The notes beneath the pieces were generated by a model, which was not told the DNA's origin, did not search any database, and worked only from the letters and a program-made list of their open reading frames with translations. A DNA stretch of 24,491 nucleotides, taken from a virus (lineage: Duplodnaviria; Caudoviricetes). The DNA is taken from positions 1 to 24,491 of IMG/VR virus record IMGVR_UViG_3300048886_001546; one strand, 5' to 3'. Of this stretch, positions 12,442-21,819 are shown piece by piece (position 1 is the stretch's first letter; each line of letters begins with the position of its first letter). The translations under genes were made by a program, and so were the position numbers.

Positions 12442-12621
12442 ATGGATACATTTGTTAGAGAAGGAAAAGCACTTTTAGAAACTAATTTATCTGGTTTAGA
12501 ACGATATAAGTTATTAAGAGAGCAAAAACAAAAAGAGCAATCAGATATAAATAGTATTAAGGAAGATATTATCGAGCTTAAGAAACAAGTAAAACTATTG
12601 TTAGGAAAACAAAATGGCTAA
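12442..12621 (+). CDS. Small coiled-coil protein (59 aa), not in the ORF track
   Basis: Manual translation: MDTFVREGKALLETNLSGLERYKLLREQKQKEQSDINSIKEDIIELKKQVKLLLGKQNG*. Fills the gap after the DUF4815-type gene and overlaps the next ATG by 8 nt. Confidence 0.8.
   Translation: MDTFVREGKALLETNLSGLERYKLLREQKQKEQSDINSIKEDIIELKKQVKLLLGKQNG
12546..12553 (+). promoter_or_regulatory. T4-type late promoter (TATAAATA) inside the small ORF
   Basis: Exact motif about 60 nt upstream of the fibre gene ATG at 12614. Confidence 0.6.
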
Positions 12622-13336
12622 AATTGTAAAAAGACGAAGAGGTACAACAGCAGAACATGCAGTTTTTAAAGGTGCTCTCGGTGAAATTACTATTGATATG
12701 GATAAGGATACTGTAGTCGTACATGATGATGATTTGTTAGGTGGTTTTCCATTAGCAAGAGAAGATTTAAGTAATGTTAATCTTGTGGGAAGAATTGGTA
12801 TTACGGAATTAGATTTAACAGATGGTCAACCAGGACAGTTTCTTAAAACAGATGGCTCAGCTGGTCTTTCATTTGCTACAGTAGATATAGATAACTCTGT
12901 TGTTGGTGGTGATGTTACTGGTACTGTTTCCAATATTCAGATTGCACAGGGTGCAGTAGATTCAGCAGCAATAGGTACAGGTGCAGTTTTAGAAAATCGT
13001 ATAGCTGATGATGCTGTAACATCACCAAAAATAGCTGATAATGCTGTTGGTATGTCAGAAATTAATGTGATAGATGGTTCAGCTGGTCAAGTGTTGACCA
13101 CTAGTGGTGCTGGTGCGTTAAGTTTTAAAACTAGTATGACGGAAACAATTGTTACACCGACTGGGGGTCAATTAACCTTTAGTGGTTTAACTTATAATAT
13201 AGGAAGAATCTCTGTTTTTTTAAATGGTATTAAACTACTCAATGGTGTAGATTTTGTTGCCAATGATGGAAGCTCTGTAGTGTTCACTGCTGGTGTTTCA
13301 TCTACTGATAGAGTTGAATTTCAAATATTTGCATAA
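12614..13336 (+). CDS. Tail fibre protein, paralog A (Mtd_N-like N-terminus)
   Basis: N-terminal RRRGTTAEH..F.GA.GEIT.D..K.TVVVHD; GQ.L.TDG...LSF and IADxAV repeats; C-terminal VFLNGIKL..G.DF.A.DG domain. Confidence 0.8.
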   Translation: MAKIVKRRRGTTAEHAVFKGALGEITIDMDKDTVVVHDDDLLGGFPLAREDLSNVNLVGRIGITELDLTDGQPGQFLKTDGSAGLSFATVDIDNSVVGGDVTGTVSNIQIAQGAVDSAAIGTGAVLENRIADDAVTSPKIADNAVGMSEINVIDGSAGQVLTTSGAGALSFKTSMTETIVTPTGGQLTFSGLTYNIGRISVFLNGIKLLNGVDFVANDGSSVVFTAGVSSTDRVEFQIFA

Positions 13337-13348
13337 TAGGAGAGAGTA

Positions 13349-13855
13349 ATGTCAAAAGCAAGAGAAATAGCAGATTTACTTGATGTTGGTGGTGATGTAC
13401 TTCTTGATCGGTTAGATAATTTACCAGCTGGTGCGGCACCAGATTGGAATACATTATTGAATAAACCTACTTTGGCACCATCTGCAACAACTGATACAAC
13501 TAACGCGGATAATATCACTAGTGGAACTATGTTAGTAGGTAGAATTGGTACAGGTACAAATGACTCGACTACTTATTTAAGAGGTGATGGAACATGGACA
13601 ACGAACTGCACAAATTTTGCTAATTGTACTAACTGCGGAACTTCCGGAACACTAAACTCGCTGACTACGTTGGGCGAAGTGGAAATAACACATTACTTAT
13701 GGCCTCCTACAAGTACTCAGTTTGGTGCCTGTAATTGTGGTGGTCCTACTAGAGAATATTACGAGCTAGTAGATAATGGTCAGACTTTGGTTACTCAGAC
13801 GAGTGGAACTCAATCGACATGCGCATGTCAATGTGATTGTGCGTGTAATTGTTAA
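13349..13855 (+). CDS. Fibre-like protein with Cys-rich C-terminus; putative substrate of the adjacent rSAM/SPASM enzyme
   Basis: RBS AGGAGAG; MSKAREIA start, WNTLLNKP and YLRGDGTW fibre-type motifs; 11 Cys, all in aa 87-168, ending CACQCDCACNC. Confidence 0.75.
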   Translation: MSKAREIADLLDVGGDVLLDRLDNLPAGAAPDWNTLLNKPTLAPSATTDTTNADNITSGTMLVGRIGTGTNDSTTYLRGDGTWTTNCTNFANCTNCGTSGTLNSLTTLGEVEITHYLWPPTSTQFGACNCGGPTREYYELVDNGQTLVTQTSGTQSTCACQCDCACNC

Positions 13856-13870
13856 AAAAGGATAATAATT

Positions 13871-14887
13871 ATGTTTAAAAAAATGTATAATAGCTTGTCG
13901 GTAGCAGTTCATGTAGAATTTTTGGTACATGACGACTATGCTTGTTTAAAAATATGGACTCCTGTTTCAGAAAGAGTAGAAAGATTTGAAGGGGATGTTG
14001 CTACATCGGCTGATTTAGGTAAGGATAATAAGGTTCCTGGGCAAATTAGTGGAACTACTATTAAAAGTTTAGCTTTTAGTCAACTACCAGAATATATGAG
14101 TTTTCCAGTAGATAACACAGGAGTTTATCATACCAGGTTACCTGCAGGTGTAATTTACGGAGAAGAAAAAGATGGTGTAGATTTTTTGCCTAACATTCCT
14201 GCCAGTATCAGAAGTAATTTCACAGATGCTCTCACAGGACAACTTTTTCGTAATGTTGCCTATTCATGGATTGATCCAACAGATACTTCTATAAATGGCG
14301 GGGAACAGTCTGATGGAGCATGTTGGGTAATAGGTGTTGTATCTTCTGACTGTCCTAGAACTTCTCCTGCTTATAATGCACTTGCGACTACTCATAATTC
14401 TAAAGCGCATCCGCTTAGATCAGTACGACAGTATGGAGCGCCTGCTTCTTTATTTTTATATCAACCATTTATGACGGATAACTTTACGGATTGTTCTGTT
14501 ACTCTAAAATATAATAAAGGATATGGGTTTAGTACCAATATTCTTGATGGTTGGGATACTGGTAGTGGGTATGATTATCTTGGTCAACTTGCTGATGCTA
14601 TGCCTCATTTTACAGTAACTAGTGGCGGCACAACTATAGATGCAGATGCACATGATACAGTAGAATTTAAAATGGTTGATGCTGATGGGACTCTTATAGA
14701 AAAAGATACTACTGTATATTTAGAATCTACAGGAGGGTATCTTCCTAAAACTAGAGTTGCCGTTACAGATGGTTTAGGATCATTTAAAGTATCTGCACTA
14801 GGTTTAGTAACTGACGATACCTTTAAAATTAAGATTGGACTTAGAAACTATACTGGAGTTAAAGACGTAAACTATACGGTTACTTAA
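13871..14887 (+). CDS. Hypothetical protein (338 aa) with probable C-terminal Ig-like beta-sandwich
   Basis: RBS AAGGA; C-terminal ~95 aa has an alternating beta-strand pattern (TVEFKMVD..VYLESTGGYLP..FKVSALGL..FKIKIG); TAATG overlap with the next gene. Confidence 0.7.
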   Translation: MFKKMYNSLSVAVHVEFLVHDDYACLKIWTPVSERVERFEGDVATSADLGKDNKVPGQISGTTIKSLAFSQLPEYMSFPVDNTGVYHTRLPAGVIYGEEKDGVDFLPNIPASIRSNFTDALTGQLFRNVAYSWIDPTDTSINGGEQSDGACWVIGVVSSDCPRTSPAYNALATTHNSKAHPLRSVRQYGAPASLFLYQPFMTDNFTDCSVTLKYNKGYGFSTNILDGWDTGSGYDYLGQLADAMPHFTVTSGGTTIDADAHDTVEFKMVDADGTLIEKDTTVYLESTGGYLPKTRVAVTDGLGSFKVSALGLVTDDTFKIKIGLRNYTGVKDVNYTVT

Positions 14888-15462
14888 TGGATTCTTTTAG
14901 TTATGAAAAGGCTTTTTCAAGCCAACAATGTGATAAAATTGTTTCTGATTTTGGTTATGAACCAACACTAGAAGCTAGTAGTGTTTATGGTCGTGATGGA
15001 TCACCAGTTTCTGATGAATCTATGGCACATATAAGATCATCATCAGTGCACTGGATTGATACAAAATTAGAAATTAATAAAGTGATTTGGGAACTTATGT
15101 TAGAAGCTAACAGTAAATTTTTTAATTATAATATTCATCAGTCCGGGGGCGAACAAATACAGTTTAGTAAATATGGCATAGGTGATTTTTACGAATGGCA
15201 TAAAGATTATTTTGATAAGCCTGATACACACAATTTTGGGGAAGTAAGAAAATTATCCGTAACGGTTGAATTATCTGATCCGGATAGTTATGAAGGAGGT
15301 ATATTAGAATTTTATAATGGAAACAAAACAACTAGTAGGCCTGTGCAAAGTAAAGGAGTTATAACTGTCTTTGATTCGCGGGAATGGCATAGAGTTACTA
15401 AAATAACTAAAGGTACGCGATACAGTCTTGTAATGTGGTGTAGAGGTGAAAAATTTAAATGA
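14887..15462 (+). CDS. 2OG-Fe(II) oxygenase, prolyl-4-hydroxylase/PKHD-like
   Basis: Y.WHKD (HxD), RKLS..V.LSD...YEGG.LEF and VFDS..WHRV..IT.GTRYSLV.W (distal His and 2OG-binding RxS). Confidence 0.9.
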   Translation: MDSFSYEKAFSSQQCDKIVSDFGYEPTLEASSVYGRDGSPVSDESMAHIRSSSVHWIDTKLEINKVIWELMLEANSKFFNYNIHQSGGEQIQFSKYGIGDFYEWHKDYFDKPDTHNFGEVRKLSVTVELSDPDSYEGGILEFYNGNKTTSRPVQSKGVITVFDSREWHRVTKITKGTRYSLVMWCRGEKFK

Positions 15463-16235
15463 AAAAACCCGCACATATAGAATTTTATGAAAATCTAAAA
15501 GAAGAATCTAAAGATACAAGAACCCACCCACTAGATAATTCTGTAACAATTCAACAAAAATGGGCTACGCCGTTTTTGGAAAGTGACATAACTCTTCCAC
15601 AGAAAATGCGTGAGGATTTAATTAAAGTCCTTGAAATAAAGGAAACCGCTTTAGCTGAGCTTAAAGAAAGCGAGCCAGAATTTTATGGCATGGCTGAAGC
15701 TAAAGGATTTTACGCAACTACTCATTACAATCTTTTTGATAATCCCGCAGAACACGCATTTGCAGAGCAATCTATTTTAGATTTTGAGCAAATTGCTTGT
15801 AAATTGATTCGCTACTACATCCGTAAAGGTTGGGGTGTTCAACAAGCTGATGATTTTAGAATTGAAGGTAGATGTTTTGGTAATGTTCAACAACCAGGAG
15901 CTAGAACATATCCCCATTATCATCAAGATACTAATGGTGTTTTAGTACATTACCTTACTGTAGGAGATGGAAATTTATTGGAGGGTACTTATGATTCTCC
16001 AAGGCATGGTAGTCACAAAGTTTTATTTATTGATCCACGACCTGCCGTTAATTATCCTTATTGGGAAAAAGTACATACAGTATCTCCAAAAACAGGACTT
16101 ACTGTAATTCACCCAAATTATTTATGGCATGAAACCAATCCTTGGTTAGGAAAAGGAACGAGAGTTTGTATTGTAGTAAATTTTAGAATTATGTCACACG
16201 GGTATAATGAACTTAGCAAGCAATTTAGGGGGTGA
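15459..16235 (+). CDS. Putative 2OG-Fe(II) oxygenase (TIGR02466-like), paralog 1
   Basis: PHYH...GVLVHYL, FIDPRP, P.TGLTVIHPNYLWHET and RVCIVVNF motifs. Confidence 0.8.
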   Translation: MKKPAHIEFYENLKEESKDTRTHPLDNSVTIQQKWATPFLESDITLPQKMREDLIKVLEIKETALAELKESEPEFYGMAEAKGFYATTHYNLFDNPAEHAFAEQSILDFEQIACKLIRYYIRKGWGVQQADDFRIEGRCFGNVQQPGARTYPHYHQDTNGVLVHYLTVGDGNLLEGTYDSPRHGSHKVLFIDPRPAVNYPYWEKVHTVSPKTGLTVIHPNYLWHETNPWLGKGTRVCIVVNFRIMSHGYNELSKQFRG

Positions 16236-16975
16236 TGGCGGTTATGGATTTACAAGTCACGGAAGAATGGCCTACTATTATTGGTACTGAAACTATAGAA
16301 TTACCTCAAGTAATGAGAGATGTTCTTGTTAAGGTAATTAAAGAACAAGATAGTGTTTTTACAGAGAACACCTACAATAAAATAAATAAAACTACTTCTG
16401 ATTTAGAAGCATTTGATTCTAAGATATATAACCTATTTGATTATTCACGTTATGAAATAGAAGAAGAAATAACACAAATCAAAGAATTTGAGAGGATAAT
16501 GTCGAAGGTTATCAGAGAGTATGTTTCTGAAGCATGGCAAGTAGATCAAGATATAGAGATTGATGTTAGAGGTTTTGGTAATGTACAAAGGACGTTTGGA
16601 AGAAGAACATCTCCTCATTTTCATCATGGTTGGGATGGTGTTTTAGCTCATTATGTAACAATAGGTGATGAGTATAAAACTAAATATACGATCCCACATG
16701 AAACAAAAGATACGGATTATAGTGGTGAATTATTATTGTTAGATCCAAGACCTAATAATTATGCTACTGATGAAAATATTAGGACTGATATTATACATAT
16801 AACTCCGTCTAATGGTCTTACTATAATACATCCTGCTTATATATGGCATGAAACGCATACTCATACTAAAGCAGGAGATAGAGTACTTGTAGCTATTAAT
16901 TTTCATATAAGGAATCGTAATTTTGATGAATTACCAACAACTTTGGTCAACACCTATAGGGAAGGTTCAAATTGA
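16235..16975 (+). CDS. Putative 2OG-Fe(II) oxygenase (TIGR02466-like), paralog 2
   Basis: PHFH...GVLAHYV, GELLLLDPRP, GLTIIHPAYIWHET and RVLVAINF. Start uncertain (GTG 16232, ATG 16235 or ATG 16244). Confidence 0.8.
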   Translation: MAVMDLQVTEEWPTIIGTETIELPQVMRDVLVKVIKEQDSVFTENTYNKINKTTSDLEAFDSKIYNLFDYSRYEIEEEITQIKEFERIMSKVIREYVSEAWQVDQDIEIDVRGFGNVQRTFGRRTSPHFHHGWDGVLAHYVTIGDEYKTKYTIPHETKDTDYSGELLLLDPRPNNYATDENIRTDIIHITPSNGLTIIHPAYIWHETHTHTKAGDRVLVAINFHIRNRNFDELPTTLVNTYREGSN

Positions 16976-17624
16976 TCTTCCGGAAAATATACGAAAGACT
17001 TTAATTCAACAGGTTATATTTAATTATAACCGAAGAACGGAAGCGAAAGAACCTATACCTTCGTTTATGGATTTGTTTGATTATACTCAATATGTAGGTG
17101 ATGAAAAAATAGATGTATTTAAGGCTGTATATAGATTTGAACTTATTATCAGCAAGATTATTAGATCGTTTGTTGAACAAGCATGGGGTATGAATGAAAA
17201 AGCTGAATTAGCAATGCATTGTACGAGTAAAGTACAAGCACCGTATGACATGAGAATAGAACCACATCGGCATAATAATGTTGATCTTACAGCAGTACAT
17301 TATTTAACTACGGGTAATGAGTTTCATTACAGGCCTCCTGATTCAACTTTAGATGAAGGTCCATATTTACCTAATGATTACAGCGGTGAGCTTTTATTAT
17401 TAGACCCAAGGCCTTGTATAACATATCCTTATAATGATAAAGCTAAAACAATCAAGCCACAAAATGGTCTTACTGTCATTCATCCTGGTTATGTTTGGCA
17501 TGAAACACATCAACATACGCAGCCGGGTGTAAGAATAGCTTTAGTTATTAATGTTGAAATATCTAAAGAAACTAAAGTACATTCATCATTAAAACAATTA
17601 ATTAATATGAGGACATTAATATGA
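16926..17624 (+). CDS. Putative 2OG-Fe(II) oxygenase (TIGR02466-like), paralog 3
   Basis: PHRH...AVHYL, GELLLLDPRP, GLTVIHPGYVWHET and RIALVINV. ATG 16926 preferred over TTG 16923; QQLWSTP aligns with QQKWATP of paralog 1. Confidence 0.8.
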   Translation: MNYQQLWSTPIGKVQIDLPENIRKTLIQQVIFNYNRRTEAKEPIPSFMDLFDYTQYVGDEKIDVFKAVYRFELIISKIIRSFVEQAWGMNEKAELAMHCTSKVQAPYDMRIEPHRHNNVDLTAVHYLTTGNEFHYRPPDSTLDEGPYLPNDYSGELLLLDPRPCITYPYNDKAKTIKPQNGLTVIHPGYVWHETHQHTQPGVRIALVINVEISKETKVHSSLKQLINMRTLI

Positions 17625-18958
17625 AATTTAAGTTTTATTTAGAAAATCAAAAAGATAATAAAGAATTATTATTAGATTATGATAATGAAACCTCAGAGTT
17701 ACGTTATGAGAATGGTGATATTGTAATACCGCAGGATATTTTTAGAGATTTTAAGCCATTTTATAAAATGAATGAAGGAAAAAGAGAACTATCAAAAATA
17801 AAAATACAACTAGGATTAAAATGTAATTATTCTTGTGAGTATTGTTCGCAGAGGTTTGTTCCTCGCAACCCAGATGATGATTATAAACATGAGGATGAAG
17901 ATGAAAAGACAGCAGAAGAAATTTCTATATTTATTAAAAGGTTTGATAAAGTAACAGTTGGTGAAAAGTTACACTTTGAGATGTGGGGTGGAGAACCGTT
18001 TTTGTATTTTCCAAAAATGAAATTAGTAACAGAACAATTACACGAAAAATATCCAGAAGCAACATTTAGTGTTATTACAAATGGTTCTTTAATTAATCAA
18101 GAAATAATTGATTTTATACAGAAATATAACTTTAGTGTTTCTATTTCACATGATGGTGTTGGACAAAAGACAAGAGGACCAGATCCTTTAGAGGATTCAG
18201 AAAAAAAGAAATGGTTATTTAAATTGAGAAATCTTTTAATTCCTGAACAAAGAATTTCTGTTAACGCCATGATTCATAAAGATAATGATAGTCGTTTAGA
18301 AGTTCAGAGGTGGATACGAAATAATTTTGGAATGGTTCCGATAGGAGAAGGTGGTACAGTAGATGCATATGATGAAGGTGGTCTTACTATGTCGTGGAAA
18401 ACAAATGAAGAACATATTAATTATAGACGGAAAGCATTTCGTGAGATAATGAGTGGAGATTTAATTCAATTTAATAAGAAAGATGAAAAAATTACTGGTT
18501 TTATAAATTCATTGAAGGCCCAAAATCCTTCTTCTTCATTATTGCAAAAATGTGGGATGGATAGACCAGATACAATGGCAGTTGATCTTAATGGTAATGT
18601 AACCACTTGTCAAAATGTAACTGTATCATCTAATAATCCTGCAGGGATTTCACATTATATAGGAACTATGGATGATTTAGATAATGTTAATATTAAGACA
18701 GGAACTCATTGGTCAGATAGAGAAGAATGTCCTAAATGTCCTGTTCTTCATTTATGTCAAGGAAGTTGTTTATTTTTAAGTCCGGGATCAGAAGAATGGA
18801 AGGCGTCTTGTGAAAATGCATATAGTGATAATGTTGTTTGGCTAGCGGCAGCTTTGTATGAAATAACAGGTCATATTTTATATAAAATTGAAGGGCCACA
18901 TCCTGAGTATCGGCATGATATATTTGGATTTGAAGCAAAAAAATATGAATATGTATAA
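17621..18958 (+). CDS. Radical SAM/SPASM domain protein (putative peptide/protein maturase)
   Basis: CNYSCEYC (CxxxCxxC, 17822-17845), WGGEP, ITNG and SISHDG; SPASM cysteines CGMD...NGNVTTC...CPKCPVLHLCQGSC...C (7 Cys including Cx2Cx5Cx3C). Confidence 0.93.
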   Translation: MKFKFYLENQKDNKELLLDYDNETSELRYENGDIVIPQDIFRDFKPFYKMNEGKRELSKIKIQLGLKCNYSCEYCSQRFVPRNPDDDYKHEDEDEKTAEEISIFIKRFDKVTVGEKLHFEMWGGEPFLYFPKMKLVTEQLHEKYPEATFSVITNGSLINQEIIDFIQKYNFSVSISHDGVGQKTRGPDPLEDSEKKKWLFKLRNLLIPEQRISVNAMIHKDNDSRLEVQRWIRNNFGMVPIGEGGTVDAYDEGGLTMSWKTNEEHINYRRKAFREIMSGDLIQFNKKDEKITGFINSLKAQNPSSSLLQKCGMDRPDTMAVDLNGNVTTCQNVTVSSNNPAGISHYIGTMDDLDNVNIKTGTHWSDREECPKCPVLHLCQGSCLFLSPGSEEWKASCENAYSDNVVWLAAALYEITGHILYKIEGPHPEYRHDIFGFEAKKYEYV

Positions 18959-18965
18959 AAACTAT

Positions 18966-18973
18966 TATAAATA
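18966..18973 (+). promoter_or_regulatory. T4-type late promoter (TATAAATA)
   Basis: Exact motif in the gap between the rSAM stop and ATG 19011. Confidence 0.75.
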
Positions 18974-19010
18974 ATACAATAGATTAAATAAATTATAGGC
19001 GGAAAACGAT

Positions 19011-20129
19011 ATGGCAAAACTAGTTCAAAGACGAAGAGGTACAACTGCAGATCATGTTAATTTCATTGGTGCTGTTGGTGAAATAACTGTTGATACTACA
19101 AAGAATACTGCTATAGTACATGACGGAACAACTGTAAAAGGACACCCCCTTGCATTAGAAGATATGTCTAATGTTGTTGGTACTCCTGTTGGTGGTGGTG
19201 TTGGTATCACACAATTAAATGTTAATGATGGTATTGCAGATCAACTGTTATCTACGGATGGTTTTGGTAATCTTTCTTTTACAACCGTTGAAACTAATAT
19301 TGCAAATGAATCAGTTGGAGGAGATGTTTCTGGTATTGTAAGTAATATTCAATTAAGAAATAATGTTGTAACTGTTAATGAAATAAATGTTGCAGAAGGT
19401 ACTATTGGTCAAGTATTAACTACAAATGGTGCTGGTGGTTTAACTTTCACAGATAAAACAGATGTTACTAATGCTCCTGTTGGTGGTGATGTCAGTGGTA
19501 CTATAAGTAATATTCAATTAGTTGCCAATGCTGTTAGAACAGCTGAAATTATAGATAATGCTGTTACTAGTAGTAAGTTATCTGTTAATTCTGTTAGTAC
19601 ATTAAAAATTGTAGATTTAAATGTTACAGGAGATAAACTTGCTGCTGATGCCGTTTCTACTATAAAGATTCTTGATGGTAGTGTAACAGATGATAAAATT
19701 GTTAGTGTTGATGCCAGTAAATTAACAGGTTCATTAGGAGTATTAGATGGAAGTAGTTTAACTAATCTCCCCTATGATACATCTTTTATTGGTGGGTTTG
19801 ATGCAGATATGGTTCCAGAAGATTTACTTCTTAATGGTATTTATGGAGAAATGGTTATGTCAAGAAATGGAACATTTCAAGGTGAAGTAGGTTATCTTGA
19901 TGTACAGGCTACAGGTACTCCATTTATAGTTGATATAGAAAAAAATGGTGCATCAATCTATTCTACTAAACCACAATTTGCTATAGGTTCAGCAACAATG
20001 ACTAGTGGTACATATGCAAACAGTAATTTTGCATCTGGTGATAGAATAACATTAAAGGTTGTACAAATAGGTAGTTCTACTGCTGGTCGTGGTCTTCGTT
20101 TTACGTTGAATGGTAAGGCCCCATCATAA
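19011..20129 (+). CDS. Tail fibre protein, paralog B (Mtd_N-like N-terminus)
   Basis: MAKLVQRRRGTTADH..F.GA.GEIT.DT.K.T..VHDG; two GQ.L.T.G.G.L.F...VGGDVSG..SNIQL repeats, decamer AVT..K repeats and a distinct C-terminal domain (VDIEKNG...GDRITL.V.QIGS..AGRGL). Confidence 0.8.
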   Translation: MAKLVQRRRGTTADHVNFIGAVGEITVDTTKNTAIVHDGTTVKGHPLALEDMSNVVGTPVGGGVGITQLNVNDGIADQLLSTDGFGNLSFTTVETNIANESVGGDVSGIVSNIQLRNNVVTVNEINVAEGTIGQVLTTNGAGGLTFTDKTDVTNAPVGGDVSGTISNIQLVANAVRTAEIIDNAVTSSKLSVNSVSTLKIVDLNVTGDKLAADAVSTIKILDGSVTDDKIVSVDASKLTGSLGVLDGSSLTNLPYDTSFIGGFDADMVPEDLLLNGIYGEMVMSRNGTFQGEVGYLDVQATGTPFIVDIEKNGASIYSTKPQFAIGSATMTSGTYANSNFASGDRITLKVVQIGSSTAGRGLRFTLNGKAPS

Positions 20130-21026
20130 ATGACGCATTTAAATCCAACATTTATAAGTAGACAAAATAAATTAAAAGGTACTTTTGGTGGTGTAGAAAC
20201 TTATTATATGGGGCAGGGACAAAATGTTCAATATAAAGTTCATACGTTTGAATCATCAGGTGTTTTTATTTATGCCGATAGTAGTACTGCACAATTAGCC
20301 AGTAGTATACTTCAGATTGGTGGCGGAGGAAGTGGTGCCCCAGGAGCAGGTGCTGGTGGTGCTGGTGGAATGTTAGTAACTCCAAGTTATAATATTATAC
20401 CGGGTGAATATAATATAATTGTTGGTGCTGGTGGACCTTCCAATGCAAATGGTCAAACCGGTACACCATCAAATGGTATTGATAGTCAATGTAATATGCC
20501 TGGCCTTGGTGATGCGATTGGTGGTGGTATGAACTTTACTGCCGGTGGAAGTGGTGGTGGAGGAGGCCCGCCAAATAATAGTGGTGGCACTGGAATTCCT
20601 GGTCAAGGAAATAATGGAGGCTCTGGACATAACTGTGGAGGAGCAGCTGGAGGAGGCGGCGGCGGTGGAGCAGGTCAAGCTGGCACTGGTGCAACTCCAA
20701 TGGGTGGTTGTCCTGGTTGTGGAGGTTGTAATGGAGGAGGTGGTGGTAGAGCAGGTGACGGTTTAGAAAATGATTATAGAACTGGCTCCAACATCTGGTA
20801 TGCAGGTGGTGGTGGAGGAGGCGGTGGTAATACAAGCGGTAATCATGGCGAAGGAGCAGGTGGACAAGGTGGCGGAGGAGCGCCAGGTTCTTCACCAGGC
20901 ACTGCTGATGGTGTTGATGGCACTGGAGGAGGAGGTCATGGATCGGGTAGTGGATCAAACCCAGGGTCTGGTGGGAGTGGCTTAGTTGTTATCAGAGTGC
21001 TTGATATTTTTGGAACAGGACCGTGA
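20130..21026 (+). CDS. Glycine-rich tail/adhesin protein
   Basis: YKVHTF..SG, GGGG..GAGGAGG, Y.I.VGAGG, YAGGGGGG and GGSG.VVIR framework typical of phage polyglycine receptor-binding domains. Confidence 0.8.
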   Translation: MTHLNPTFISRQNKLKGTFGGVETYYMGQGQNVQYKVHTFESSGVFIYADSSTAQLASSILQIGGGGSGAPGAGAGGAGGMLVTPSYNIIPGEYNIIVGAGGPSNANGQTGTPSNGIDSQCNMPGLGDAIGGGMNFTAGGSGGGGGPPNNSGGTGIPGQGNNGGSGHNCGGAAGGGGGGGAGQAGTGATPMGGCPGCGGCNGGGGGRAGDGLENDYRTGSNIWYAGGGGGGGGNTSGNHGEGAGGQGGGGAPGSSPGTADGVDGTGGGGHGSGSGSNPGSGGSGLVVIRVLDIFGTGP

Positions 21027-21027
21027 T

Positions 21028-21531
21028 ATGTCATATTTTGCTAAAGTTGTAGACAATAAAGTAGTTACAGTAATAAAAGCTGAACAAGATTTTATAGATC
21101 AGTATGATGATGGTACTGGTGAGGGTGAGTGGATTCAGACTTCATATAATACATGGGGTGGAAAACACTATGATAGAAATGGTGTAGAAGATGATAAACC
21201 ACCATTAAGATATAATTATGCAGGTGTGGGTTTTATATATGATAAAGAAAAAGATGCTTTTCTTGCTCCACCATTACATCCAAGTTTCGTATTAAATGAA
21301 ACGACTATGAGATATGAGCCACCAATTCCATATCCAACAGGTTTGAAAGGTGGTCCAAGAAGATTTATTTGGGATGAAGATCATTATAATGAACATGGTG
21401 AATGGTTAGATTTGTGGGATACATCAGATGCGTTATCACAACATAATCCAGATTCAAAATATTATTTGGAAGATGTTGTTAAGTATGAAGATCCAGATTA
21501 TCCATTTGAGGATTACCCTGAAAGATACTAA
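21028..21531 (+). CDS. Conserved phage protein (WIQTSYN family), possible fibre-associated/assembly protein
   Basis: Likely start is ATG 21028 (MSYFAKV), not 20986; WIQTSYNT, LRYNYAG.G..YD...DAF..P and PPIPYP motifs, a type I recall next to Gly-rich fibre genes. Confidence 0.7.
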   Translation: MSYFAKVVDNKVVTVIKAEQDFIDQYDDGTGEGEWIQTSYNTWGGKHYDRNGVEDDKPPLRYNYAGVGFIYDKEKDAFLAPPLHPSFVLNETTMRYEPPIPYPTGLKGGPRRFIWDEDHYNEHGEWLDLWDTSDALSQHNPDSKYYLEDVVKYEDPDYPFEDYPERY

Positions 21532-21534
21532 AAT

Positions 21535-21819
21535 ATGGCTACTGCTGAAGAACATAAAAATAGAATGACACAAGCAGAACGTGAACAGAAAATGACTTGG
21601 CAAGAAATTCGTGATGAATCTATTGGTATGTTAAAGGAAACTTATGATGCTGTAACAAGTGGTTTTGTAGAAAAGGAAAGACAGGCTGCACGATATAAAA
21701 TATGTGAAGGATGTGAAGTGTTTAAGCCACTTTTAAGACAATGTAATTCATGTAAGTGTTTTATGCCAGCAAAAACATTATTTAATAATTCCAGATGTCC
21801 TAAAGGTTATTGGATGTAG
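21535..21819 (+). CDS. Small Cys-rich putative metal-binding protein (DUF6171-like)
   Basis: R..IC..C........C..C.CFM..K.......CP...W pattern with 6 Cys. Confidence 0.7.
   Translation: MATAEEHKNRMTQAEREQKMTWQEIRDESIGMLKETYDAVTSGFVEKERQAARYKICEGCEVFKPLLRQCNSCKCFMPAKTLFNNSRCPKGYWM

Follow-up and report, generated by a model that had tools for sequence, protein, structure and literature searches.

A radical SAM/SPASM cassette paired with Cys-ended fibre-type proteins in tailed phages, and its predicted part in fibre-tip maturation

Introduction

Among the closest described systems to the one considered here is CrpC of Methanococcus voltae, a radical S-adenosylmethionine (rSAM) enzyme with seven SPASM-domain Cys that forms thioethers in a whole protein, CrpA, within a Cys-rich C-terminal part rather than in a short peptide (PMC13692751). 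Seven SPASM Cys with an open site on the first auxiliary cluster (AuxI) are the pattern of CteB and CrpC (PMC6231123; PMC13692751), and TigE, which likewise has seven, uses the tyrosine of a GYW motif (PMC10878394). NxxcB forms a Cys-Asn beta-thioether and accepts Ala, Gln or Asp as the acceptor (PMC9389541), and enteropeptin carries a six-membered thiomorpholine in which Cys is joined to the residue directly before it (PMC12395415; PMC13361665). Here, these systems are compared with a seven-gene cassette in a 24,491-base stretch of viral DNA (the window; IMG/VR record IMGVR_UViG_3300048886_001546), in which an rSAM/SPASM enzyme, four 2-oxoglutarate (2OG)-Fe(II) oxygenases (OG1 to OG4) and a 338-residue partner (U) are encoded beside a Cys-ended protein (the Cys protein). 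The original prediction, made from the letters of the window, held that this set resembles a cluster for a peptide made by ribosomes and modified after translation (RiPP) whose precursor is a virion fibre.

Receptor-binding fibres are usually treated as plain gene products, and a literature search, thin on subscription journals and with the CrpC supplement listing related proteins in other taxa outside its scope, turned up no article in which phage fibres are matured by an rSAM enzyme. The words "phage", "viral" and "tail" are absent from the main text of PMC13692751, whereas the enzyme described here stands in a tail context. Members of phrog_1802 in Ralstonia phage RSP15, Achromobacter phage JWF and Achromobacter phage 2-1 belong to the same enzyme family (42% identity) and are annotated only as "radical SAM domain-containing protein", with no substrate proposed. 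New here are a promoter-bounded unit, a test of the oxygenases, statistics on the Asn before Cys for which enteropeptin provides a precedent, and a ladder open reading frame (ORF) in phage RP12.

Results

The cassette and its conservation

The predicted layout of seven co-oriented, tightly packed ORFs was recovered at the same positions, all on the plus strand and abutting or overlapping by 1-50 nucleotides (nt), as follows.

13349..13597, plus strand: Cys protein, N-terminal half (residues 1-83); fibre attachment and shaft-type repeats
13598..13855, plus strand: Cys protein, C-terminal half (residues 84-168); Asn-Cys dyads, hypervariable middle and ladder; predicted substrate
13871..14887, plus strand: U, 338-residue partner; N-terminal domain without match, C-terminal immunoglobulin-like (Ig) domain (Big-1/intimin-like) at residues 244-338
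14887..15462, plus strand: OG1, PF13640-type 2OG-Fe(II) oxygenase; H105-x-D107...H168; 58.5 bits; optional
15459..16235, plus strand: OG2, PF13759-type oxygenase; H153-x-H155...H224; 39.9 bits; the cassette-linked one
16232..16975, plus strand: OG3, PF13759-type paralogue; 25.8 bits; 35% identical to OG2; lineage-specific duplicate
~16926..17624, plus strand: OG4, PF13759-type paralogue; 27.9 bits; start inferred from the homologue in locus L001; overlaps OG3 by 50 nt
17621..18958, plus strand: rSAM/SPASM enzyme, 445 residues; phrog_1802 (E 1e-55), PF04055, TIGR04085

The rSAM enzyme, the Cys-ended fibre-type protein and the 338-residue family travel together in phages and prophages, as the neighbourhood check suggested with the original prediction was to establish. 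The enzyme family is large, counting 1,743 proteins at an E value of 1e-40 or lower. The enzyme-anchored set of 160 loci was made up of two halves, the 80 best among 608 viral matches and the 80 best among 212 matches in genomes; 124 of the loci had at least 4.5 kb upstream and could be evaluated (12 of the 36 dropped show a ladder). A same-strand ORF with a Cys ladder was found in 123 of the 124, and a stricter ladder pattern in 121, with 3 opposite-strand hits as the control; counted by cluster, the stricter pattern is present in 63 of 65 (90% identity) and 27 of 27 (70% identity). At the sole exception, L120, a recombinase-type element (read by eye) is inserted upstream; an rSAM without a Cys-rich neighbour, named in advance as contrary to the proposal, was therefore seen once in 124, at a locus broken by mobile DNA.

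The reverse searches used DNA patterns blind to the enzyme. The pattern CxCACNC-stop returned 84 loci, 53 in frame and 40 evaluable, with a family enzyme nearby in 39 and the remaining one cut by the contig end. The pattern NCNCNCxC, taken in 120 of an estimated 620 loci, was in frame in 70 and evaluable in 28, of which 21 had a family enzyme, 5 a distant rSAM and 2 none. Ladder ORFs with less than 4.5 kb downstream were dropped (13 of 53 and 42 of 70, respectively); the dropped loci L300, L308, L324 and L363 encode small proteins that carry NCNCNC at the N-terminus; the available DNA there encodes no enzyme, and these proteins likely represent another family. No rSAM was found in any of 42 control loci of at least 9 kb in which the pattern matched outside any ORF of at least 60 residues. 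Anchored on U, a Cys-ladder gene lay directly upstream in 42 of 43 loci, the exception (L041) looking decayed. Chance pairing of rSAM and ladder is excluded.

The system occurs in T4-like phages, siphovirus-type prophages and a phiKZ-like jumbo phage. Bacterial hits that were scanned (127 of 178 ORFs at 11 loci) are mostly prophage tail modules, with the cassette between tip-attachment and lysis genes. In the cultured phages RSP15 and JWF the context is again a tail module: RSP15 has a fibre ending in NCQCGN followed by U and the enzyme, and JWF has a ladder fibre with a Hint domain, another partner and the enzyme, with no oxygenase; in both, the enzyme likewise follows a Cys-ended fibre. The Hint domain after the JWF ladder would place the ladder at the mature C-terminus. 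The jumbo phage RP12 (phiKZ-like) has a distant enzyme homologue with a 65-residue ladder ORF upstream. That ORF (L467:861-1058; Ralstonia phage RP12, NC_041911.1) is unannotated, ends in a NCNCNCAC ladder and sits between YomR-like fibre genes and three annotated rSAM genes; the cluster also has a further, fourth ORF encoding a CxxxCxxC motif, as well as an MgoB-like gene, and small ORFs similar to the ladder ORF occur in L318 and L327. In the Roseobacter group (L204, L205, L187, L197, L206, L208), U, a Cys-ended gene of about 85-95 residues, an oxygenase and an rSAM adjoin S74, tail-repeat or collagen fibre genes, with housekeeping surroundings in the three loci scanned; these loci may encode the fibre of a gene transfer agent or be what remains of a prophage.

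The predicted substrate

The Cys protein (13349-13855) comprises 168 residues with 11 Cys, every one within residues 87-168, and six of them form the terminal ladder C158-C168 (CACQCDCACNC, nt 13820-13852). The ladder is coded in mixed codons and is thus not a DNA microsatellite, an origin that was rejected on this ground. The whole protein has no direct match in Pfam, PHROG or NCBIfam, and its Atlas matches are all below 0.9. Matches to residues 1-85 were found in 59 longer proteins, including 13 with Peptidase_S74 or a phage tail repeat; these fibre matches of the N-terminal half and the position in a tail module uphold its earlier description as fibre-type. Compared with its closest relative (L005), the protein is 86% identical at the N-terminus, 95% in the shaft and 34% in the middle, while U is 67-68%, OG2 84% and the enzyme 89% identical; over 12 loci, the median identity is 33% in the fibre middle and 67% in the enzyme. 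All 25 aligned clade proteins share an unchanged CACNC end, by which they were chosen. This suggests a constant frame around a hypervariable segment, as in receptor-binding tips. No co-variation of fibre middle and U was found (Spearman -0.02, 66 non-independent pairs). Three loci (L012, L027, L275) hold 3-4 tandem Cys-ended fibre paralogues whose middles differ, with one U and one rSAM each in L012 and L027.

The grammar of the Cys end was derived from 113 dereplicated substrates (from 192). Asn precedes 80% of their 425 non-ladder Cys and Ala 9%, against an Asn background of 12%, and all other offsets stay at or below 27%. Of 430 ladder spacers, 392 are Asn, Ala or Asp, the ladder NC being a selection criterion. 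Because of this preference at -1 and the spacer statistics, the recognised unit is likely X-Cys, X being mostly Asn, rather than NxxC or CxxxD. By comparison, CrpA has CxxQ/D repeats (PMC13692751), whereas the phage substrate has X-Cys dyads and a CxCxC end. The likeness to NxxcB would lie in a Cys-to-Asn thioether and in the tolerated Ala, Gln and Asp, which are the spacers of the window ladder; the NxxcB acceptor, however, lies three residues upstream and the phage acceptor would be adjacent; the likeness is one of chemistry (PMC9389541). Enteropeptin has the ring geometry that an X-Cys dyad would need, but a single ring, on N-methylornithine and in a secreted peptide, and is likened by product only (PMC12395415; PMC13361665).

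Ladders contain 3 to 10 Cys and end at most five residues from the stop codon in 99 of the 113 substrates, 9 having long extensions, 6 of them Hint-type. A Hint domain follows the ladder in L003 (by Pfam) and in L040, L050, L202, L328 and L352 (by motif), and in L155, L164 and L326 a conserved domain beginning KIIC does so, without a Pfam match in L155. The His-x-His of T4 gp37 is a precedent for axial metal binding in a fibre. The ladder could accordingly bind a stack of metal or Fe-S that lies along the axis of a fibre trimer, for which the enzyme builds or loads the cofactor while the chain stays covalently unchanged: alternating Cys would share one side of a strand, the range of ladder lengths would be compatible with a stack, and IscA-like and ferredoxin-like genes, named by eye, occur on related T4-like contigs. 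The Asn before isolated non-ladder Cys would then be unexplained, however, and the enzyme matches maturases of peptides and proteins rather than synthases of clusters, and this explanation is considered quite unlikely.

The same Cys end is found fused to fibres of 300-600 residues whose N-termini are unrelated, and some substrates measure only 65-95 residues. The latter, together with a hypervariable core within constant ends that resembles RiPP precursors, would suit a released RiPP (toxin, signal or metal scavenger), with the fibre-like part serving just as its leader or carrier. The fusions to long fibres with unrelated N-termini speak against such a product, as does the position of the unit under a late-promoter motif among tail genes; moreover, no recurring peptidase or exporter was found among 127 Pfam-scanned neighbours at 11 loci, a role that host enzymes might fill. 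A released product is thus regarded as very unlikely, and retention of the Cys protein on the virion as highly probable.

The radical SAM/SPASM enzyme

The assignment to the rSAM/SPASM class proved sound, by the C68/C72/C75 motif, PF04055 (above cut-off), the SPASM model TIGR04085 (32.3 bits, cut-off 27) and the fold. The enzyme has exactly ten Cys, three in the CxxxCxxC motif (kept in 102 of 103 aligned enzymes) and seven in the SPASM domain (311, 330, 370, 373, 379, 383 and 397; each kept in 101-103 of 103), with C370, C373, C379 and C383 forming the CX2CX5CX3C motif. In the profile search it falls far below the cut-off of every NCBIfam maturase family. The best match is PapB (NF047865, 74.6 bits against 340), and TIGR03974, also of the PapB/CteB ranthisynthases, gave 39 bits against 425. 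The CrpC family TIGR04463, which the original prediction had named as an example, gave 36.2 bits against 525 and was discarded; the phage enzyme shares seven SPASM Cys with CrpC, but lies far from its profile and shows no full RiPP recognition element (RRE) in its structure model. The likeness to CteB (5WHY) and PapB consists of the fold and the CX2CX5CX3C SPASM domain with three AuxI Cys; the differences are the scores, a model without a leader-RRE arrangement and a fibre-type substrate with no CX3D.

In the model (pLDDT, the predicted score of the local distance difference test, 88.4), the best folds are anSME and CteB, about equal, with anSME (4K36) on top in Foldseek (E 2.6e-13) and practically tied with CteB. 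This match, the top sequence match to TigE (8VPO), a model that, like anSME, shows no full RRE, and widely varying accessory enzymes (HxD...H cupins, desaturase-like proteins, a second rSAM) would be compatible with an enzyme that acts on the Cys end by non-thioether chemistry and builds another chemical group with the oxygenases. Options include anSME-like oxidation of Cys (giving an aldehyde or thioaldehyde), decarboxylation of the C-terminus, epimerisation at every other residue and a C-C bond. anSME also acts on a protein, but its clusters are fully Cys-ligated by eight SPASM Cys; in the phage enzyme no eighth Cys exists, D317 stands where anSME has its second AuxI Cys, and none of 103 family enzymes has a Cys between positions 312 and 329. 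The Asp after the anSME hairpin Cys, which has a catalytic role in that enzyme, is Gln in 99 of 103. Membership of anSME was rejected on these Cys and on score (TIGR03942, 58 bits against 349), and membership of the cyclopropyl synthases (TigE, TvgB) because GYW occurs anywhere in 1 of 103, the tyrosine that TigE requires (PMC10878394) being missing in the phage enzyme. The strong need for Asn before Cys further fits a two-residue cross-link. Non-thioether chemistry is on these grounds considered somewhat unlikely.

The oxygenases

The metal triads are HxD...H in OG1 and HxH...H in OG2-4. At the Pfam cut-off of 27, OG3 falls just under, and OG4 was scanned without its first 12 residues. Across the 124 cassettes, at least one oxygenase is present in 110, the number per cassette being none in 14, one in 65, two in 33, three in 9, four in 1 and five in 2; these counts come from iterated hidden Markov models, with two loci undercounted and 12 hits without the first motif. 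The PF13759 type occurs in 108 of 124 loci and the PF13640 type in 23. OG2-4 fall in one 34-row clade of a quick tree (SH-aLRT 99). OG2 has no match among cultured phages.

A rival view takes the oxygenases, or all of the cassette, for general cargo that a variable tail region carries and that acts on something else, such as the host surface, DNA or metabolites. In the oxygenase-anchored search, 9 of 61 loci had no enzyme, U or ladder within 7 kb, and these hold more distant paralogues in T4-like genomes, e.g. between tail-tube and portal genes; 14 of the 124 cassettes are free of both oxygenase types, 12 loci form a group that no longer has the first HxH/HxD motif, and JWF has no oxygenase. 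Against this, 52 of the 61 loci are cassettes, 110 of 124 enzyme loci have at least one oxygenase within the cassette, all 36 full-length matches at least 47% identical to OG2 lie inside it, and chance is excluded for the rSAM-ladder pair. Cargo is thus highly improbable for the set, while for OG1, OG3 and OG4 taken by themselves it is a real possibility, a little short of even. The claim of four dedicated oxygenases did not survive, as the typical number is one, close relatives vary, and paralogues of the same clade occur outside the cassette. The four represent a local expansion, and one oxidative step looks usual.

The paralogues of the OG2-4 clade outside the cassette lie on T4-like marine contigs (L446, L448-L450; L443-L445), where, with neighbours named by eye, they adjoin IscA-like, ferredoxin-like or aldehyde-dehydrogenase-like genes or sit between tail-tube and portal genes. 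Cassettes without oxygenases often have other cupins, desaturase-like genes or a second rSAM. In L071, L072 and L115, the stretch between U and the rSAM encodes several cupin-like proteins (HxD...H) and membrane proteins resembling fatty-acid desaturases (PF00487 in L115), and in L042-L046, L048, L162, L185 and L194 a second, shorter rSAM (about 340 residues) takes the oxygenase place between U and the family enzyme.

The partner U

U is present in 102 of 124 enzyme loci, and its family comprises 620 clusters at 50% identity. Several loci without U have a JWF-type partner, not detectably related to it; a shared N-terminal domain of U and the 240-residue JWF-type partner, suggested by eye, was rejected (hhalign probability 0.1%). 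In the model (pLDDT 89.2), residues 244-338 form an Ig domain as in GH2 enzymes, intimin and invasin (Z 10-11; best match Z 11.2, root-mean-square deviation 2.1, 91 aligned), a shared fold that carries no functional proof. The N-terminal domain gave no fold match in whole-model searches and no Atlas match, which does not imply a new fold. A complex prediction of three Cys proteins (residues 44-168) with U scored 0.00, gave no verdict and was used neither way. From its model, U may be an adaptor, an adhesin or a chaperone.

Transcription unit and integrity of the sequence

The source record is a 24,491-base linear virus, about 14% complete, with large genes that look, by eye, like T4-type baseplate genes and precede the fibre genes; the source virus is a marine T4-like phage and the cassette sits in its tail-fibre region. 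The predicted tail-fibre flanks were confirmed, as genes 12614 and 19011 carry Mtd_N and match tail PHROGs. The features that would bound the transcription unit are as follows.

12546..12553, plus strand: T4-type late-promoter motif TATAAATA, 68 nt 5' of the Mtd_N gene; predicted unit start
12614..13336, plus strand: 240-residue fibre gene, Mtd_N (PF18454, E 4e-10; phrog_9648, tail)
18966..18973, plus strand: next TATAAATA motif, 45 nt 5' of fibre gene 19011; predicted unit end

For TATAAATA we used what we take to be the T4-type late-promoter consensus. Five of its six matches in the window lie 25-68 nt 5' of a gene start, and all are on the plus strand; the count alone is within chance (expected mean 4.8). 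The 68-nt spacing is kept in L005, L013 and L018, and the motif before the cassette is missing in 6 of 14 relatives checked. A scan for sigma-70 promoters and terminators gave promoters no more often than chance, and RNA runs held short pieces only, from an oligo-dT library. The late transcription unit predicted from these motifs spans 12546-18958 and includes the 240-residue fibre gene, which the original prediction had omitted. An Mtd_N-like gene lies directly or one gene before the Cys gene in marine-clade loci with upstream DNA, and the 12614 protein is likely the proximal piece where the Cys protein docks. After gene 19011, a second conserved block (20130-21819) encodes a Gly-rich PF21722 protein, a 167-residue phrog_7759 protein and a 94-residue CxxC phrog_13558 protein.

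Cassette-bearing runs are marine or hydrothermal-vent metagenomes. Contigs of run X1, which may be the source sample, tile 12600-19100 with zero differing letters, and a contig of run X7, from another study, spans 15531-17617 with 56 differing letters and so covers the oxygenase part independently. An assembly artefact was rejected. Also in X7 (window 16211-17625), the contig of a close relative links the end of OG2 directly to the rSAM, which means that OG3 and OG4 are absent in that relative.

Discussion

Taken together, the system is real and conserved, and would be a variant of rSAM protein maturation. We infer each step from co-occurrence to chemistry. The enzyme very probably acts on the Cys end of the fibre-type protein and, if it does, the product is fairly probably a thioether; the full proposal, that thioethers are formed at Asn-, Ala- or Asp-Cys pairs of a fibre tip, is held with moderate confidence. 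Late in infection, a substrate Cys would be bound on the open iron of AuxI, the enzyme would abstract a hydrogen from the neighbour that precedes this Cys (Asn or, failing that, Ala or Asp), and a small thioether ring would close with a change of -2 Da, this being repeated along the ladder and at scattered Asn-Cys pairs. An oxygenase of the OG2 type may add hydroxyls, Asn being the obvious target, with OG1, OG3 and OG4 as optional extras. U could then bind the matured end as a tip adaptor or adhesin, or act as a chaperone, and a hypervariable loop that faces the host would be held in place by the rigid frame of Cys.

Several observations weigh against thioether formation on a fibre tip. The seven SPASM Cys are not diagnostic, TigE, the best PDB sequence match, having seven too, and D314, invariant in 101 of 103 enzymes, could occupy the open AuxI iron site as a fourth ligand. 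The enzyme model has three N-terminal strands with no helices before the barrel and no complete RRE, a domain of a type that C-terminal elements of the model might complete. The substrate shows neither the NxxC spacing of NxxcB nor the CxxxD spacing of PapB, and a direct Pfam or PHROG fibre match of the Cys protein is missing. The loci are redundant through near-duplicates, and the three anchored sets overlap. Finally, the only virion proteome found, the list for phage RP31 (32 proteins; PMC5468394, Table S3), does not contain ORFs 69-76 of the cassette region; this list is shallow, with 17 of 28 predicted structural proteins and a smallest entry of 12.8 kDa, RP31 is a distant relative, and the 65-residue ladder ORF is absent from the RP12 annotation, so that the list is blind to such an ORF.

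If thioether maturation of fibre tips is true, many tailed phages would mature these tips by radical chemistry, phrog_1802 and the 620-cluster U family would gain a function, some of the many phage 2OG oxygenases would have a testable substrate, and the cross-link at adjacent residues would possibly represent new chemistry. As the tag is short and occurs on unrelated proteins, the enzyme may be portable, and the cultured phage JWF makes the claim directly testable. A bolder and unlikely extension is that many unrelated phages make the fibre end a RiPP-like ligand of fused Asn-Cys rings, further oxidised by variable oxygenases and mimicking a metallophore or another small molecule that the host takes up; if true, host range would depend on tailoring enzymes in addition to fibre sequence, a new kind of receptor recognition.

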